Source: Escherichia phage nataliec. Taken from it: 64,000 nucleotides of DNA. Below the pieces are notes generated by a model. The model ran no database searches and was not told the origin of the DNA. It saw nothing but the letters and a program-made list of their open reading frames with translations. A program made the position numbers and the translations under genes. The stretch lies in the sequence record MN850611.1; one strand, written 5' to 3'. This document shows, in pieces, positions 8,959 through 27,161 of this stretch; positions within the stretch are counted from its first letter, which is position 1, and every line of letters starts with the position of its first letter.

Positions 8959-9216
8959 ATGGCTATTATCAAAAACGTTGTAATTACCGCAAAGACTCGT
9001 GATGACGCTCGTATCATGGCTAAAAAGTTATGCGGGAAAGTGGTTGACAACGGAAAACAATCTGCTGTAAGGTGGGGCGTGAAAGCTGATAAGCAACTAA
9101 CCTTAAAACATAATTCAAACAACCTTTTTAAAGGTGTAAAATCACTCGGTAAAGTAAACGTTTTTACCAAAAAAGGCTATAAAATGCACTTATCATTAAC
9201 TGGCAATTTAATCTGA
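8959..9216 (+). CDS. hypothetical protein
   Basis: ORF track start 8944 is a TTG inside the conserved leader; ATG at 8959 sits at the conserved distance from the SD. Confidence 0.45.
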   Translation: MAIIKNVVITAKTRDDARIMAKKLCGKVVDNGKQSAVRWGVKADKQLTLKHNSNNLFKGVKSLGKVNVFTKKGYKMHLSLTGNLI

Positions 9217-9228
9217 TAAAGTACTTTA

Positions 9229-9311
9229 CAAGGGGCTTAAAAGTTGATATCTTAAGCCCCAGATAAAGAGCTTTACCACTAAATCAAGTCCTTAAACTAG
9301 GAGATTCAAAA
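9229..9311 (+). promoter_or_regulatory. intergenic cassette family A, copy c
   Basis: Hairpin GGGGCTTAA-loop-TTAAGCCCC with a different loop; conserved leader. Confidence 0.6.
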
Positions 9312-9824
9312 ATGAAAACTGTAGACGCTACCTTTGAAGTTGTAAAAGAAAAATTTTCCATCGTTTATGAGGCTGTTAATTGCTATGAAGCAAGTCATAA
9401 TCTTGATAATTGGAAGTTTACAGATGACCATCAAGGCGGTGTGACTGTTAAAAATCCCAACTGTCAGCGTAATGATTTTAAATATGCAATCCCTTTACAT
9501 TACAGCCTTAAACAGCTTTCAAGTGACTACGCAAAACAAGGCCGGGAAAATCCATCGAAAGAGGCTTATATCAGCTTACAGAGAGAATTAGAAAGAGATT
9601 TAGAGGCTTCAGAGTATAACATTGCCGCGAAAGTTGTGGATGCAAACGGTAGAACGGTTTTAGACAGTTTTTATATTGGTTATGCTTTCGATTGGTGCTA
9701 CAGTGACGGCGATGATTTAGATGACAGACTAAAAGAGGAAGTGAACAACGCAGACGCAGAATCTGAAGTATTAGAACGTTTGGAATCGTTGAAAGACTCA
9801 GTGATGAATATCTTTAAGAACTAA
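9312..9824 (+). CDS. hypothetical protein
   Basis: 170 aa ORF behind family A cassette. Confidence 0.5.
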   Translation: MKTVDATFEVVKEKFSIVYEAVNCYEASHNLDNWKFTDDHQGGVTVKNPNCQRNDFKYAIPLHYSLKQLSSDYAKQGRENPSKEAYISLQRELERDLEASEYNIAAKVVDANGRTVLDSFYIGYAFDWCYSDGDDLDDRLKEEVNNADAESEVLERLESLKDSVMNIFKN

Positions 9825-11493: not shown

Positions 11494-11697
11494 ATGGCTA
11501 TTATCAACGGTTTAACCATTGAAACTACACACATCAAAGATATTAAAGTTGGTGATGTAGTCCTTTCCCACGGCGTAGAGAAAACTGTTACTGCAAAGGA
11601 TATTAAAGAGGATTCTTTCATGGGTAGGACTCTCTTCGGTGATTCTTATTGCTTAGGTTATCTTGCAGTTTTAAAAGTTGTCAAAAATAACCGATAA
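11494..11697 (+). CDS. hypothetical protein
   Basis: 67 aa ORF. Confidence 0.4.
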   Translation: MAIINGLTIETTHIKDIKVGDVVLSHGVEKTVTAKDIKEDSFMGRTLFGDSYCLGYLAVLKVVKNNR

Positions 11698-11789
11698 AGT
11701 ACTTTACAAGGGGCTTAAAAGTTGATATCTTAAGCCCCAGATAAAGAGCTTTACCACTAAATCAAGTCCTTAAACTAGGAGATTCAAAA
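11697..11789 (+). promoter_or_regulatory. intergenic cassette family A, copy h
   Basis: Identical to copy c. Confidence 0.6.
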
Positions 11790-12353
11790 ATGAAATGCTT
11801 TCACGGTACTACTCTGAAAAACTTTGTAAACCTGCTGAGTGGTGGCGATAAGCCGGAAGGAATCTGGAACTGCTCCTACATGGACGATTGTTTCTACGTT
11901 TACCCAATGAATAAGGTTATCAAAATGGAATGTCTGGAAGATGAAGAAGATTCTTACATCCGTGAACGCTGCATTCAAAGTGCCTTAGAGTCGGGGCTTA
12001 TTACGGCTGCTTTCCAAATGGAAACGCAGGACGTGATTGTTATTGAAATGGATATCCCAGAGGAAGAACTAGAGGACGATTATTCTTGTGACAACATGAG
12101 CGAAATTGCCAGCTTTACCGGATACTTTGATAAAAATTGGATTGTTAGTATCCACTCAACGAAATTTAGTGCGATGTATGCACCTTTCTTTGTACCTGAT
12201 ACGAAAAACCGCAATTTGGGATATGTTGACGATGATTTGTTGAGTATTGCAAAAATTGTACAGAATAGCGGTGATAGTTCCGTGTTTTGTGACCTACTGG
12301 ATAAAATCACGGAAAACCTCACAGAACGCAATTTAAAGGACTTTTTAGGATAA
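11790..12353 (+). CDS. hypothetical acidic protein
   Basis: 187 aa ORF. Confidence 0.5.
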   Translation: MKCFHGTTLKNFVNLLSGGDKPEGIWNCSYMDDCFYVYPMNKVIKMECLEDEEDSYIRERCIQSALESGLITAAFQMETQDVIVIEMDIPEEELEDDYSCDNMSEIASFTGYFDKNWIVSIHSTKFSAMYAPFFVPDTKNRNLGYVDDDLLSIAKIVQNSGDSSVFCDLLDKITENLTERNLKDFLG

Positions 12354-13301: not shown

Positions 13302-13832
13302 ATGAACAAGTTCAAAGCTATCAACTTCATCCGCTCAAATAGTGTTATGTCAAAACCTGTTAAAGACACTTACGAATTTCGTTGTAATGGTGTACATTTT
13401 GCAACCATCACCAAATCAGAAAACGGGGCTTATTACGTCCATCGCCGCAATGTTGCAACCGTTGTTGTCTCTCATTTTATGCAAGCTGTCGCGGAACTTC
13501 TCCCGATGTTTTTAGGGCTTTACTTAGATGAGTGTAAAAACGTTCACAATCACGTTAAAAACCTTTTAAACAGTTATAAAATGGCTTATGAACGTTCTAT
13601 CAAGTCCTTAAACAAGTTTTACAACGCACCTGAAAATACTGTGTCAATAGCCTATGCTGCAAATGGTGGGATGGTAAACTTATCCAATGTGGAAGAAATC
13701 GAACTGCATGACTTACGCCCTAGCGGTTACTCTAAGACTCTCGGTGAAGGATTATCATTCAATATCAAGAACTTAGAAAAAACTTTAAGAGATATTGAAA
13801 AAGATATTGACGAGACAATCAAAAATCTGTAA
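13302..13832 (+). CDS. hypothetical protein
   Basis: 176 aa ORF. Confidence 0.5.
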   Translation: MNKFKAINFIRSNSVMSKPVKDTYEFRCNGVHFATITKSENGAYYVHRRNVATVVVSHFMQAVAELLPMFLGLYLDECKNVHNHVKNLLNSYKMAYERSIKSLNKFYNAPENTVSIAYAANGGMVNLSNVEEIELHDLRPSGYSKTLGEGLSFNIKNLEKTLRDIEKDIDETIKNL

Positions 13833-13897
13833 ATTACTAATCAACGGGAGGGATAACCTCCCCACTAAGTAAAGTCCTTAAACTAGGAGACTCTAAA
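13807..13897 (+). promoter_or_regulatory. intergenic cassette family B, copy k
   Basis: TTGACG, 17-bp spacer, TAAATT (overlaps the 3' end of the preceding CDS), hairpin, conserved leader. Confidence 0.55.
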
Positions 13898-14146
13898 ATG
13901 GCAACTATCCGCGCAACTGTTAACGAATTTGGCTTCTACTCTCTGGATGTTAAATTCGACCTTGTGGGTACTGATAACGCCTTTGAAATGGTGAAAGTTC
14001 TTATCAGTCAGACCATCAAAGACTATAATCCTTCAGATGAGTTCTGGAAAGAAACAAAACAGGAAGTTCTCAAAGAGGGCTATTCATATCACTATTGGGG
14101 TGAAAAAATCGTCTCCCTGTACTACGACAAAGAAGGCACTAACTAA
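13898..14146 (+). CDS. hypothetical protein
   Basis: 82 aa ORF; followed by hairpin GGGGCTAAATAGCCCC at 14158-14173. Confidence 0.45.
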   Translation: MATIRATVNEFGFYSLDVKFDLVGTDNAFEMVKVLISQTIKDYNPSDEFWKETKQEVLKEGYSYHYWGEKIVSLYYDKEGTN

Positions 14147-15820
14147 TCGACGCAACGGGGCTAAATAGCCCCAGATACCTTTACAGCCCCTTTCCCATAG
14201 GAGCTTTTTTACGTCTATCAAACCCCTTATACAACCCTTTCCCTTTCCTTTCCAGAATCTTATCAGACCTTAAAAAGCAATAACTCTATAGCCTACTCTA
14301 TAGCCTTTTATCAAATCAACTTAAATATAAGCCCATAACCCGAAAGGGAAGGGCAACCATTTAAACGCTCTATAAAGCCCTATAACAGCCTTATCAACCT
14401 AACTTAAGGGATTGCATTACCTCACCCTTAAAAGCCCTTTATAAAGCTTCCTAGAGCCTTAAAAGAATCTTATAAGGGTGTAAGCTTTATTATCTCGTTA
14501 GCTATCTTGTGAATAACTAAAAGGGCTATGAGATAGGAATCTATCGAATCCTATTGTTAGTGTCTTAAAAGTATGTTATAGGGGCTTAAAAGTTACTTTG
14601 AAGTAGCTTAAAAGTTACGTAAATGCTAGCCCCCTTAACATTTTCTTAACAATTTCTTAACAATCCCTACATAGTTATGCTTTTAAGACACTTGTTAGCA
14701 ACTTGTTAGCCCCTTGTTAAATCTCTGTTAAGACCACGTAAAAGCCTTGTAAGAGTCTTTGACATAGCCTTAAAAGCTCCTGTGAAGCCCTATAAAGAGT
14801 TATCTGTACAGTTGGGGTGTAACTACTAGGAAGAGACTTAAAAGAGCTTATAAAGAGCTATAGAGAGCTTTTAAGAGGTATGTTTAAGGAATCACTAAGA
14901 AAGGGAAGGGAACGATAAGAAAGAGATAGTGACCATGTTAATAGCTAGTTAAAAAGATTAAACACTTGTTAGAAACTTGTTAATTATCTTAACAAAATAA
15001 CTCTTTAAAATTAACTTGTTAGCTCTTGTTAGTCATCTGTTAAGATTCTGTAAAACCTATGTATCAACTGTTAAGAAACTGTTACAGCCTTGTTAGTTCT
15101 GTTAAGAATCTGTTAAGACCTTTGAAGAGTTGTTAAGAAGATGTGAGAACTGTTAAGAGATTGTTAAGGATATTTTAAAATTTTGCAAAGTACTTGTAAT
15201 GGAGCTGTTAAGGGCTACCAAGCAGATATACATCCTAATCAGATATTTTTGAGTTCCTTCAAAGACCTTAAAAAATGACTTGACAGTCCTATTTTATAAA
15301 AATTTTAAGATTCTGAATAATTACCTATACAGTCTTTTAAAAATACAGGTAATAACAGGCTTATAAGATACCTTGTTAGTACCGTGTTAGACCTTGTGAG
15401 ATAAGGTCTGTAAAGATATTCCTGTTAAGTTTGTTAAAACAGTCTATATAGAGGCTTAGTAATACCTAGTGAACACCTATAGAGAGTGTCATAGCTGACA
15501 TAGAGATTAAGAGGTGTATAGGAGCTTCTAAGAGGGTGTAGAGAGATGGTTAAGGTGATTGTATAGGTTGTTAAGAGGGATTGTTAGAAGAGTGTTTAGA
15601 AGGGCTATTTAGAAGGGCTATACAGAGGGCTATTAAGACCACTAGATAGTTACTAAGATACTATATAGTACTATATAACTATATAGAGAGTAAGATTAAG
15701 AAGGTTGTTAAGAAGGGTAGATATTTTGTTCACATATGATGGTGACCCAGAGGTTGGGACAACCGATAAAATTTTATAAGAATTAAAAAGCCCCCCAATT
15801 AAGGAGGCTCTTAAGATATT
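14147..15820. repeat. ORF-free iteron-dense region (candidate origin or protein-binding array)
   Basis: About 1.67 kb with no ORF of 60 aa or more in six frames, between convergent gene blocks. Dense short repeats: CTTGTTAG/CTGTTAAG at roughly 10-11 bp spacing (14940-15180), tandem TTCTTAACAAT and ACTTGTTAGC pairs, CCTTAAAAG copies, and a purine-rich TTAAGARGG series (15480-15730). Confidence 0.6.
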
Positions 15821-16378
15821 TTAAACCAGTGTTTCCAGAACTGTCTTCAGTGATGACTTGGTTGTCTGATAAAAATGAGTGAATCCATTGTTGTTATCGA
15901 ATATCTGCATCATGATATCATCTCCCTTGATTGGGTACACTCGGATATCATAGTGAAAACCATTAAAGACACAAGAACCACTACAGAATGCTCTAAAGTC
16001 ATCCATTGAGATATACTCTTCATGACCTGTGATTTTTATACAAACACCTTTACTCGGTCTCTTAGGGTTGATATCTTCCATCACAGACATACTCTGTCCA
16101 CCAAGAGAGACCACAGTGACCACTTTACGGTTCTTCTGTTTAAAGTACATCTTAACTTTCTGCAAAGTGTCTTCATAGAACGGATACGACTTCTCTACAA
16201 AGATTCCTTCAAGTGGCTCTTTACCATTTTGAACCTCTCTGTAACCCCGTACTGCAAAGATAATTTGTTCTAACCTATTAAGGCTTTCTTCGTAGAGTGC
16301 TCCACGAATATCATTCCAGTCAAGGACTAGGTAGTTGCCTTCAACTTCTTTTAAGTTATCTTTTTCCATATCTATCAC
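15821..16378 (-). CDS. hypothetical protein
   Basis: 185 aa ORF, first gene of the leftward block. Confidence 0.5.
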   Translation of the reverse strand: MIDMEKDNLKEVEGNYLVLDWNDIRGALYEESLNRLEQIIFAVRGYREVQNGKEPLEGIFVEKSYPFYEDTLQKVKMYFKQKNRKVVTVVSLGGQSMSVMEDINPKRPSKGVCIKITGHEEYISMDDFRAFCSGSCVFNGFHYDIRVYPIKGDDIMMQIFDNNNGFTHFYQTTKSSLKTVLETLV

Positions 16379-23743: not shown

Positions 23744-23971
23744 GGCAGACCTACAGCTTTAAGTAAGATGGTACAGTAATCCATACAACAAGTCAAGAAC
23801 TATTGCAAGTTAAAAAAGTTGTTGACAAAGTACTTGACAAGGTGTAGGCTTATAAATACTTAGAAGATAACTTAAAAGGTTCCTCTAAAAAGGCTATTTA
23901 AACAGATATCTTTCTGGATATCTATCTTTTATCTTAAAAGCCTTTTAAGAGGTCTTATAAGAGGCATACCA

Positions 23972-26005: not shown

Positions 26006-26082
26006 CTCTGTTTAGCTCAGCTTGGTAGAGCGTTCCGTTTGGGGCGGTAAGGCCGGAGGTTCAAGTCCTCCAACAGAGACCA
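26006..26082 (+). tRNA. tRNA-Pro (anticodon UGG), CCA encoded
   Basis: Hand fold: acceptor ctctgtt/aacagag, D stem gctc/gagc, anticodon loop tTTGGgg, T arm ggagg-ttcaagt-cctcc. Confidence 0.65.
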
Positions 26083-26099
26083 AATTTAAAGGGGTTACT

Positions 26100-26456
26100 A
26101 TGAGATTTTTAAAAGAATGTCCAGTTCATGGTTTAACTGAACATAGCATTCATAAGAATGGTAACGCCGGTAATAGAGTAAATTGTCTAAAATGTTGTGC
26201 ATTAAGGACAAAACTTAGAGAGAATGCCAATAGAGAGAAAGCATATAAGCTTTATGGCGATAGCTGCAAAATTTGTGGCTATAATAAATGTAAAAATGCT
26301 TTAGAATGGCATCACCTTAACCCAAACGAAAAAGAGAATACACCATCAAAACTTATGGGTGCATCTTGGGAAAAGGTTAAAAAAGAACTTGATAAATGTG
26401 TTTTGCTATGTGCTAATTGCCACAGAGAGGTTCATAGCGGAATTACAATGATTTAA
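26100..26456 (+). CDS. HNH homing endonuclease
   Basis: Motifs WHHLNP and CANCHREVH; ORF track start 26022 overlaps tRNA-Pro, so ATG at 26100 (RBS aaagggg) is preferred. Confidence 0.7.
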   Translation: MRFLKECPVHGLTEHSIHKNGNAGNRVNCLKCCALRTKLRENANREKAYKLYGDSCKICGYNKCKNALEWHHLNPNEKENTPSKLMGASWEKVKKELDKCVLLCANCHREVHSGITMI

Positions 26457-26457
26457 T

Positions 26458-26532
26458 GTCGTAGAAGGCAAATGGTTAGCCACCTGACCTTCAATCAGTT
26501 GCTCGCAGGTTCGAATCCTGTCTACGACACCA
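26458..26532 (+). tRNA. tRNA, anticodon ambiguous (loop cCTTCAa, possibly UUC/Glu with C33)
   Basis: Acceptor gtcgtag/ctacgac, T arm gcagg-ttcgaat-cctgt, CCA encoded; anticodon stem has a mismatch. Confidence 0.5.
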
Positions 26533-26538
26533 GTTTTG

Positions 26539-26612
26539 ACAGAAGACCAATTACAGCAAACTTAATCTTATTCATCTGAAGGTAAATCGGACAAAGAAGA
26601 TATTTGGTCTGG
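26539..26612 (+). ncRNA. helix-bracketed structured element 1
   Basis: 5' CAGAAGACCAA pairs with 3' TTGGTCTGG, enclosing about 55 nt; sits between two tRNA genes. Confidence 0.35.
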
Positions 26613-26623
26613 TCATTAAGAAT

Positions 26624-26700
26624 TGCGGGTATAGAGAAAGGGCGTCTCACATGTCTCATTAGCATGGTATCGGCAGGTTCGACTCCTGCACCCGCCTCCA
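26624..26700 (+). tRNA. tRNA-Met or Ile2 (anticodon CAU)
   Basis: Acceptor (t)gcgggt/acccgc(c), anticodon arm catgt-ctCATta-gcatg, T arm gcagg-ttcgact-cctgc, CCA encoded. Confidence 0.6.
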
Positions 26701-26706
26701 AATTTA

Positions 26707-26770
26707 CAGAAGACCGTTTACAGCAATATTTATTAAATTTTTAGCGGAAAAATTGAAAGATACGGTCTGG
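26707..26770 (+). ncRNA. helix-bracketed structured element 2
   Basis: 5' AGAAGACCGTTT pairs with 3' ACGGTCTGG; internal hairpin AATTTTT-agcgg-AAAAATT. Confidence 0.35.
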
Positions 26771-26783
26771 TAATACTAAACAT

Positions 26784-26860
26784 GGTTAGGAAGCACATAA
26801 GGTATGTGCGGTCGCCTGTTAAGCGAATGGCACAGGGTTCGAATCCCTGACTAACCGCCA
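26784..26860 (+). tRNA. tRNA-Asn (anticodon GUU)
   Basis: Acceptor ggttagg/actaacc, D stem gcac/gtgc, loop ctGTTaa, T arm caggg-ttcgaat-ccctg, CCA encoded. Confidence 0.7.
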
Positions 26861-26929
26861 AATTTAGGAGAGAAGCGATTGCTCACCGATTTGTAAGGTG
26901 CAAGTCCTTAGCCTGAATAGAAATTAAAT

Positions 26930-27017
26930 GTGTCGTTATCCCGTAGATGGTAGCGGTGGGGACTGTAAATCCCTTGTCATTGAGACTCGGTAGGTTCGAC
27001 TCCTACACGGCACACCA
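26930..27017 (+). tRNA. tRNA-Tyr (anticodon GUA), class II
   Basis: 88 nt; acceptor gtgtcgt/acggcac, anticodon arm gggga-ctGTAaa-tccct, long variable arm, T arm gtagg-ttcgact-cctac. Confidence 0.7.
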
Positions 27018-27022
27018 ATAAA

Positions 27023-27100
27023 GGTTATGTAGTTTAATTTGGTTAAAATACTCCCCTGTCACGGGAGATGATGAGGGTTCAAATCCCTTCATAACCGCCA
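27023..27100 (+). tRNA. tRNA-Asp (anticodon GUC)
   Basis: Acceptor ggttatg/cataacc, anticodon arm ctccc-ctGTCac-gggag, T arm gaggg-ttcaaat-ccctt. Confidence 0.75.
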
Positions 27101-27161
27101 ATTTTGAGAGGGCTATTTAGCCCCTCCCTTAAAGAGTTCTTACGAGTATTCTTTAAAGGAG

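Follow-up and report, generated by a model that had tools for sequence, protein, structure and literature searches.

Helically spaced repeats fill a predicted direct terminal repeat within the gene-free region of Escherichia phage nataliec

We analyzed a 64,000-nt stretch of the genome of Escherichia phage nataliec (sequence record MN850611.1), here called the window and numbered on its + strand, with a focus on a gene-free, repeat-dense gap that extends from 14147 to 15820. Comparison with related phages indicates that this gap is very likely a concatemer junction, in which a 591-bp segment at 14629-15219 represents a direct terminal repeat (DTR) that occurs as a single copy in this record and, by orthology, would form both ends of the packaged DNA. 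Taken as a whole, we consider it probable that this region is a Felixounavirus concatemer junction with T7-type ends, in which short iterated motifs (iterons) act as a packaging platform. The original prediction, which was made from the letters of the window, had listed a replication origin, a nucleoprotein-assembly or packaging site and a long noncoding transcript as candidate functions for the gap. The packaging or nucleoprotein candidate was essentially right, as the gap appears from orthologous phages to contain the physical ends of the virion DNA, a feature that had been missed; the origin and transcript candidates were not supported.

The phage group to which the window belongs is evident from the gap itself. 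A megablast search with the gap matched 256 phage records, nearly all of them Ounavirinae, which are the Felix O1-like myoviruses of Escherichia, Salmonella, Shigella and Citrobacter, and 203 of these records cover at least 80% of the gap. The window exhibits 92-93% identity over 25 kb to its nearest records, which makes it a Felixounavirus distinct from every record compared. Felix O1 itself has an equivalent 1.6-kb gap that is located between ORF23 and ORF24. Note that Felix O1's genome had been opened upstream of rIIA for the purpose of annotation, with short terminal repeats regarded as probable (PMC3185647), and that the window is opened at this same arbitrary rIIA site. The Felix O1 genome paper does not discuss the gap, and only 'short terminal repeats' are inferred there (PMC3185647).

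Assignment of 14629-15219 as a DTR derives from orthologous records in which the genome ends are explicit. Specifically, PP892526.1 contains an exact 581-bp duplication at both of its record ends, and OK539913.1 (Citrobacter phage HP1, a Mooglevirus) contains an exact 570-bp end duplication that is annotated as a repeat_region, with both of these duplications mapping to 14629-15219. A 618-bp 'DTR' annotated in Salmonella phage UAB_69, within its copy of the gap, maps to 14627-15221, and positions 1-581 of MW481326.1 are annotated as a short direct terminal repeat. At least seven independently deposited records (PP892526, PP886229, MN994503, OK539913, OR498728, MW481326 and OQ708377) start at the equivalent of nucleotide 14629. 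There is also published evidence for these termini, which includes a 608-bp DTR defined in UAB_Phi87 by Bal31 digestion and run-off sequencing (PMC4837284), two 581-bp repeats called in Pr103Blw by PhageTerm (PMC8303462), DTRs called by PhageTerm in Philippine isolates (PMC11737134), a DTR reported for UAB_69 (PMC11350853) and a Felix O1-like DTR cluster recognized by Bardina et al. (PMC4837284). As regards the T7-type class of short DTRs, the same sequence is present at both virion ends in the orthologues, and is predicted to be so in nataliec, while fixed non-permuted termini are indicated by the at least seven common record starts and by the near-invariance of the boundaries. The window contains both of the boundary sequences, which are nearly invariant across 12 genomes.

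The predicted nataliec repeat is orthologous to the DTRs of UAB_Phi87 (608 bp), UAB_69 (618 bp as annotated), Pr103Blw (581 bp), I14.1/E9 and Citrobacter phage HP1 (570 bp), with 88-90% identity within Felixounavirus and 76% identity to Mooglevirus, and it shares with them the same boundary sequences and the same location between homologues of Felix O1 ORF23 and ORF24. There are two differences. One is that the lengths of these repeats step by 10-11 bp or 21-22 bp, and the other is that the repeat in the nataliec record is unannotated, single copy and situated in mid-sequence. The existence and position of a DTR in Felixounavirus are already published and annotated and are not in themselves a discovery. 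The phasing of the iterons, the conservation of their motif, the quantised repeat lengths, the mirrored cleavage context and the conservation of the spacers are undiscussed in PMC4837284, PMC11350853, PMC3185647, PMC8303462 and PMC11737134; other sources may describe them. Two of the records that we encountered deserve comment. PP892526.1 (phage I14.1) has a taxonomy line that reads Tequintavirus, whereas its sequence and its paper (PMC11737134) say Felixounavirus. The record for 'Staphylococcus phage SA1' (GU169904.1) holds a 90%-identical copy of a Felix O1-type region, which suggests that it is a mixed or chimeric record.

Because assembly collapses the two copies of the repeat into one, the window displays the concatemer-junction form, in which the gap is divided into a 482-bp left spacer (14147-14628), the predicted 591-bp DTR and a 601-bp right spacer (15220-15820). 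In the model that we favor, the packaged DNA would run from G14629 rightward around the map to C15219 with 14629-15219 present at both ends, and two converging gene blocks would terminate at the outer edges of the spacers. The left spacer would in the virion be unique DNA that is immediately internal to the right-hand terminal repeat, and the right spacer would be unique DNA immediately internal to the left-hand one. Replication would, according to the T7-type model, generate concatemers with one DTR per junction. The terminase would then nick the + strand at 14628/14629 and the - strand at 15219/15220, with both nicks falling in the context 5'-TGCTW^G..GCCC..TTAACA-3' on the nicked strand, and the resulting 5' overhangs would be filled in to give a full DTR in each daughter genome. 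After infection the terminal repeats would allow concatemers to form again. Phased copies of the motif TGTTAR would constitute a platform on which a DNA-recognition protein of the phage, perhaps an unrecognized small terminase (TerS), would bind and wrap the DNA, and this protein would mark the junction and place the nuclease at each boundary.

The gap stands out in the window by its lack of genes. The interval 14147-15820 is not overlapped in any frame by an open reading frame (ORF) of at least 60 aa, as had been noted from the letters, and the sole ORF that lies wholly within the gap is 31 aa long, with ORFs of 43-45 aa merely overlapping its left edge. A script-based survey showed that this 1674-bp gap is the longest ORF-free interval in the window, with the second and third longest (1473 and 789 bp) being occupied by a cluster of 24 tRNA genes. 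A lag-3 coding signal is likewise absent from the gap when assayed by sequence autocorrelation. The records of UAB_69 and UAB_Phi87 annotate 'hypothetical proteins' of 25-49 aa at the equivalents of ~15060-15360 and 15730-15830, and the repeat structure and missing coding periodicity indicate that these proteins of the DTR and right spacer are probably annotation artefacts.

Gene orientations, together with a terminator at each edge, also bear out the original prediction that the flanking genes converge on the gap. The rightward transcription unit ends on the + strand at 14157-14214, where a hairpin (GGGGCT-AAAT-AGCCCC, 14157-14172) is followed by a T-run element (14185-14214), the homologue of which in phage ASO1A is annotated as a rho-independent terminator. 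The leftward unit ends on the - strand at 15786-15812 in a rho-independent terminator composed of an 11-bp stem and then a T-run, and a terminator is annotated at the equivalent position in both ASO1A and Moogle. A terminator scan of the gap called the - strand terminator only and did not call the + strand one at the left edge.

These transcript ends also bear on whether the gap encodes a long or structured noncoding RNA. Such an RNA would account for a 1.6-kb stretch that is free of ORFs and yet conserved, and folds with z-scores of -2.2 to -3.3 are indeed present. However, these z-scores, obtained for both flanks, are similar on the two strands, which is expected from palindromic motifs such as CTTATAAG and CTATATAG, and the terminators at both edges point into the gap. 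Furthermore, an Rfam scan of 13800-16100 gave no match at E <=0.4, with two sub-threshold chance matches only, sigma-70-like promoter sites occur at chance frequency (15 versus 12.3 expected), and the gap would be interrupted by physical DNA ends. Neither a known RNA family nor a strand-specific structure with its own promoter was thus found, and we regard the noncoding transcript as extremely improbable. A literature search on Felixounavirus transcription found nothing relevant.

The repeats in the gap are dominated by TGTTAR, which is present in 26 copies on the + strand and 4 on the - strand, as compared with 66 and 50 copies, respectively, in the other 62.3 kb of the window. This amounts to a 14.7-fold enrichment on the + strand. 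The richest 600-bp window contains 21 copies, as against a median of 1 across the 64 kb, and each of the eight highest-scoring 600-bp windows overlaps the gap, with no enrichment elsewhere. Other motifs follow the same trend, with CTTAAAAG/CTTTTAAG being enriched 16-fold in the gap and TTAAGA 13-fold. Tandem Repeats Finder (TRF) and a repeat finder recovered 11-bp tandem arrays of TTCTTAACAAT (14634-14664) and ACTTGTTAGC (14690-14719). These counts and arrays agree with the earlier observation that the gap contains short repeats at intervals of roughly 10-11 bp as well as tandem pairs. At lags of 10, 11, 20-22 and 31-32, the autocorrelation of base identity rises to z = 5-8.8 within 14629-15219 and to z ~4 in both flanking spacers.

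Within the predicted DTR there are 22 TGTTAR copies, of which 18 are forward and 4 are inverted (three at the left boundary and one internal), and these are arranged in discrete blocks. Three inverted copies (CTTAACA x3, - strand) abut the left boundary at 14634-14664 with an 11-bp spacing, and they are followed on the + strand at 14690-14732 by four forward copies (CTTGTTAG / CTGTTAAG), also at an 11-bp spacing, that are located at 14693-14726. The center of the DTR (14733-14935) is devoid of TGTTAR and instead contains CTTAAAAG copies and a 10-11 bp AAGAGCTWTA array at 14831-14881. The TGTTAR copies on either side of this center are 210 bp apart, which corresponds to ~20 helical turns. The remainder of the DTR is occupied by fourteen forward copies on the + strand (14936-15212) that have spacings of 9-11, 20-22, 31, 39 and 44 bp, with the one internal inverted copy being located at 14989 inside this cluster. 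Four extra + strand copies are found outside of the DTR at 15369-15440 by motif count and TRF.

The two boundaries of the predicted DTR have a common organization. The left cleavage context, TGCTA^GCCCCCTTAACA, is at 14624-14640 on the + strand, such that the 5' end of the virion + strand would be G14629, and the right cleavage context, TGCTT^GGTAGCCCTTAACA, is at 15206-15225 on the - strand, such that the 5' end of the virion - strand would be the complement of C15219. The fuller boundary sequences are ATGCTA^GCCCCCTTAACA at the left and CTGCTT^GGTAGCCCTTAACA at the right. When read from outside to inside on the strand that carries the 5' terminus, both cut sites share TGCTW^G..GCCC..TTAACA in mirror orientation. 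The motif copies nearest to the cuts are likewise in mirror orientation, at an inward distance of 5 nt on the left and 8 nt on the right. The symmetry is retained with the UAB_69 boundaries, where both cuts move 2 nt outward. The left core is nearly invariant among 12 phages of three genera, with 9 matching the window over 14624-14640 and the others differing at 1-5 positions. This mirror-image context fits one enzyme that would act alike on both strands. Multiple candidate sites beside the cleavage position, as at a TerS recognition site, are present at both boundaries, with the arrays running inward from the cuts.

The spacing of the TGTTAR copies was also analyzed for helical phase. The 18 + strand copies in 14629-15219 fit a period of 10.4 bp with a Rayleigh R of 0.77, a value reached by 0 of 2000 random position sets, and the 14936-15212 cluster alone has a best period of 10.3 bp with R = 0.84. 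A stricter null model, in which local tandem spacing is kept and the gaps between clusters are jittered, gave a mean R of 0.63 and P ~0.04. One-turn local spacing of these copies is thus certain, while their long-range phase coherence is suggestive.

We assessed conservation in an alignment of the region from 12 phages of Felixounavirus, Mooglevirus and Suspvirus. Against four Mooglevirus/Suspvirus genomes, the left spacer, the predicted DTR and the right spacer of the window each have an identity of 0.76, which is higher than the values of 0.70 and 0.64 obtained in the same comparison for the flanking protein genes. The gap is thus better conserved between genera than the genes beside it, and the hypervariability among relatives that would have spoken against a function was not seen. 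Between genera, motif positions in the DTR are 94% conserved versus 71% for other DTR positions. All 12 genomes share a 10.4-10.5 bp phase (R = 0.72-0.80), and the DTR equivalents have lengths of 569/570, 591, 601 and 613/614 bp. Each of the seven multi-base indel events within the DTR is 11, 21 or 22 bp, whereas indels in the right spacer include sizes of 12, 13 and 24-26 bp that match the 12-13 bp repeat unit of this spacer.

A more distant comparison is provided by Erwinia phage Hena2 (Kolesnikvirus, OM522317.2), which shares only an 85-bp BLAST match and has almost no alignable DNA. The Hena2 record starts at the homologous left boundary and retains a TGTTAAG array as well as a similar right-boundary sequence. 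Its left spacer contains a different iteron, TTCTAAR (>12 copies), as compared with the CTTAAAAG type of the Felix O1-like phages. This shared TGTTAAG array alongside a TTCTAAR spacer indicates that the spacer iterons have diverged while the DTR iterons have not. The cross-genus conservation and the Hena2 layout together argue that this terminal design is a subfamily-wide trait under purifying selection, as judged from these alignments. A scan of IMG/VR for three closely spaced TGTTAAG copies found 14-22 copies per 600 bp in Ounavirinae contigs, with one truncated locus having 8. The dense arrays outside of the Ounavirinae that we inspected were mostly 12-nt coding tandem repeats, and two small non-coding ones had 12-nt or irregular spacing. 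The iteron architecture thus appears from these scans to be confined to Ounavirinae. As for satellite or hijacker copies, the DTR had no match in 5,426 complete E. coli genomes and 72,556 plasmids, with a distant search mode included.

One alternative to a dedicated function is that the repeats have no reader and are tandem DNA made by slippage, tolerated in a non-coding terminal region and perhaps contributing only curvature or flexibility. The occurrence of indels in whole 11-bp or 22-bp units would be explained by such a process, as would long-range phase coherence that is marginal once local tandem spacing is fixed. T7 is also said to have short imperfect repeat arrays beside its terminal repeat, which Dunn and Studier reportedly described in 1983 with no firm function. 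Tolerated slippage products would not, however, be expected to have motif positions that are 94% conserved when the intervening bases are 71% conserved, nor would the motif and its layout persist in Erwinia phages in which the surrounding DNA is unalignable, nor would the gap be more conserved than its adjacent genes. We consequently give this explanation little credence.

Another alternative is that the iteron array is a replication origin, either alone or in combination with a packaging site, where an initiator would bind the repeats and melt the AT-rich right half. Several features are congruent with an origin. The repeats are short, direct and helically spaced, and the right half of the DTR is its most AT-rich part (29.8% GC versus ~39% for the genome), although AT richness is an unspecific sign. 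In addition, our literature search found no mapped origin for this phage group. On the other hand, the origin iterons of lambda or of plasmids are few in number and 17-22 bp in length, whereas the motif in the predicted DTR has a core of 7-8 bp in 11-bp units that recurs in ~22 copies, so the small set (3-7) of 17-22 bp iterons that is typical of origins is not found here. DnaA boxes are unclustered, with one site of one mismatch in the gap and a window total below chance, and no initiator gene was recognized beside the gap, where all of the neighboring genes belong to families of unknown function. The GC skew of the window follows gene orientation, with its turn at 15-16 kb coinciding with a switch in orientation and similar turns recurring at every such switch. 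Finally, the array ends exactly, and in mirror fashion, at two mapped DNA ends, which an origin would not need. T7 does have secondary origins near its genome ends, and its plasmid packaging needs an origin plus a junction according to the passage of PMC13236587 that refers to Chung & Hinkle 1990. With no positive support in the form of clustered DnaA boxes or typical iterons, an origin at this location seems quite unlikely.

What the iterons do at a concatemer junction is less certain than the junction itself. We propose tentatively, by analogy and with slightly more doubt than conviction, that they have the role of a terminase platform. Approximately 22 conserved sites that are spaced at one turn and end 5-8 nt from the cuts fit a cooperative wrapping platform on the basis of their geometry. 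In the lambda cosB R sites and the SPP1 pacL/pacR boxes, a multimeric small terminase bends or wraps DNA and positions the nuclease, and the nataliec geometry, with several short sites beside a cleavage point, fits this arrangement. It differs in that nataliec has ~22 sites over 590 bp as compared with 3-7 sites over ~100-200 bp, and in that there are two cuts 591 bp apart and no TerS identified. Plasmid R1 parC/ParR and phi29 p6 provide examples of many helically spaced sites that assemble a cooperative solenoid-like complex, which for phi29 occurs at the genome ends. The likeness to these systems would be one of geometry and possible mode of action, with no sequence or protein homology, and they act in partition or protein-primed replication rather than in terminase cutting.

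The T7/T3 junction is similar to that predicted here in having a short, exact, non-permuted repeat that is present as one copy per concatemer junction and is duplicated at packaging, and the T7 junction is also reportedly flanked by short-repeat arrays. There are also several differences. The T7/T3 repeat is 160 bp, with that of nataliec being ~3.7 times longer and itself filled with iterons, and the nataliec flanking genes point toward the ends and not away from the left end. Moreover, nataliec is a myovirus with a T4-type large terminase (TerL) and without a phage RNA polymerase, and for this reason the coupling of packaging to transcription pausing that exists in T7 should not be taken for granted. 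Passages in PMC3276506, and in PMC13236587 where it cites Chung & Hinkle 1990, describe the T7 junction as a cis-acting packaging element.

TerL is encoded at 31783-33399 and is of the T4 type (PHROG 979; Pfam Terminase_6N/6C). Its ORF has a TTG start and codes for 538 aa that match only positions 81-636 of the 642-position PHROG 979 profile. Directly upstream and in the same frame there is a 66-aa ORF (31576-31776; phrog_4397, unknown function) that is separated from TerL by one stop and two codons, and which may represent a small gene of its own, a split N-terminus or part of a read-through arrangement. No TerS is listed in Pharokka-annotated relatives. A DUF7338 protein (29433-29990, 185 aa) was considered as a TerS candidate and rejected, because T4-like phages also encode it and one record labels it a holin; its homologues in T4-like and other large myoviruses (STP4-a, Cronobacter S13, AV109 and GuL6) are 53-60% identical.

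Several points weigh against the packaging interpretation. No TerS or other DNA-binding reader was recognized near TerL or the gap in searches of PHROGs, Pfam and NCBIfam, along with a PDB sequence search on four proteins. The protein binding, nicking chemistry and fill-in steps are borrowed from T7. The window holds one copy of the segment and comes without reads, so the terminal redundancy of nataliec itself rests on orthology. The boundaries differ by 2 nt between UAB_69 and the PhageTerm-based records, and the published UAB_Phi87 DTR is 608 bp as compared with the 614-bp equivalent that we derived by alignment. In addition, the periodic signal is mostly one of local tandem spacing, with the coherence that extends beyond it being at the P ~0.04 level noted above, and slippage during replication of an 11-bp tandem array would also yield indels in 11-bp quanta, with no need for selection on phase.

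The failure to recognize a TerS also favors a further alternative, namely that the iterons are read by a factor other than terminase, such as a virion or early protein that protects or organizes the ends, an IHF-like host nucleoid protein or a transcription regulator. In support of such a reader, related motifs (CTTAAAAG, CTTATAAG and TTAAGAGG) recur in intergenic cassettes of the early region and at 23744-23971, a divergent promoter region, and tandem CTTAACAATTTCTTA units are, by eye, one mismatch away from the IHF consensus WATCAANNNNTTR. The 82-aa gene that adjoins the gap is also relevant as it is a homologue of Felix O1 ORF23, the product of which was detected in virions (PMC3185647). 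Confinement of TGTTAR to the gap region (median of 1 per 600 bp elsewhere) nevertheless makes a general regulator unlikely, the mirror placement of the motif at both cuts points to the cutting machinery, and the neighboring proteins have no structural or family match that suggests DNA binding. Overall we view a reader unrelated to terminase as unlikely. Somewhat less doubtful, although still speculative, is a variant of the packaging interpretation in which the DTR is a ~0.6-kb phased protein-wrapping scaffold with ~22 TGTTAR sites, on which a non-canonical, TerS-independent recognition protein would place two mirror nicks 591 bp apart. The same scaffold complex might also serve in end protection or replication initiation. 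If true, this scaffold would represent a new architecture for packaging recognition among short-DTR phages, a group in which the recognition signals are ill-defined even for T7.

A concatemer junction at this location has several practical consequences. The correct physical map would be opened at 14629 and carry the repeat 14629-15219 at its far end as well. Terminal redundancy would give a ~2-fold step in coverage over 14629-15219 that could be misread as an origin, and the tiny 'hypothetical proteins' annotated inside the repeat can be flagged as probably spurious. Felix O1-type phages are used for Salmonella typing, biocontrol and therapy, and rebooting or engineering them, or building transducing plasmids, would need an intact junction. 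Phased conserved iterons in combination with a mirrored cut motif would also provide a testable handle on how ends are recognized and duplicated in a group of short-DTR myoviruses, and a virion protein encoded beside the DNA end, the product of the 82-aa gene, might be a DNA-binding candidate.

The two spacers that flank the predicted DTR have distinct compositions. The left spacer (14147-14628) is C-rich on the + strand with a GC skew of -0.21 and contains 10-11 bp repeats of the CTTAAAAG / CTATAAAG type, and the right spacer (15220-15820) is G- and purine-rich on the + strand with a GC skew of +0.29. This symmetry is compositional and not at the level of sequence, as inverted pairs between the spacers are short and scattered and no colinear inverted symmetry was found. 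The right spacer contains the + strand series of purine-rich TTAAGARGG / TAGAAGGGCTAT repeats (15480-15730) with a 12-13 bp period, along with CTATATAG repeats at 15659-15687. The strand asymmetry that had been described for this series is evident at 15440-15730, where the GC skew is +0.53 and purines make up 62% of the bases; repeats of 12-13 bp are located at 15584-15638. Within 15480-15730, relatives differ by indels of 12, 13 or 24 bp.

We also made observations on other parts of the window. The 82-aa gene that adjoins the gap on its left is at 13898-14146; the protein had no family or structure match in PHROGs, Pfam, NCBIfam or a PDB sequence search, and its homologue, the Felix O1 ORF23 product, was found in purified virions (PMC3185647). 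The region at 23744-23971 is a divergent intergenic region between leftward and rightward gene blocks that contains two TTGACA hexamers and shares the motifs CTTAAAAG, CTTTTAAGAGG and CTTATAAGAGG with the DTR spacers, which may reflect a shared regulatory or composition feature. The 24 tRNA genes cluster at 26006-31350, where a 76-aa ORF (31239-31469) overlaps tRNA-Ser and tRNA-Cys and is probably spurious, and where the GTG start at 30379 that is listed for a 265-aa DUF7217 ORF overlaps tRNA-Phe. Finally, two early-region intergenic spaces contain an exact 103-bp repeat (9215-9317 and 11693-11795) that consists of a hairpin, GGGGCTTAAAAG..CTTAAGCCCC, followed by CAGATAAAGAGCTTTACC, a ribosome-binding site and an ATG. 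This repeat corresponds to the 57-bp repeats of the Felix O1 paper (PMC3185647), and a weaker, degenerate third copy of it (14157-14190) forms the hairpin that lies at the gap's left edge.

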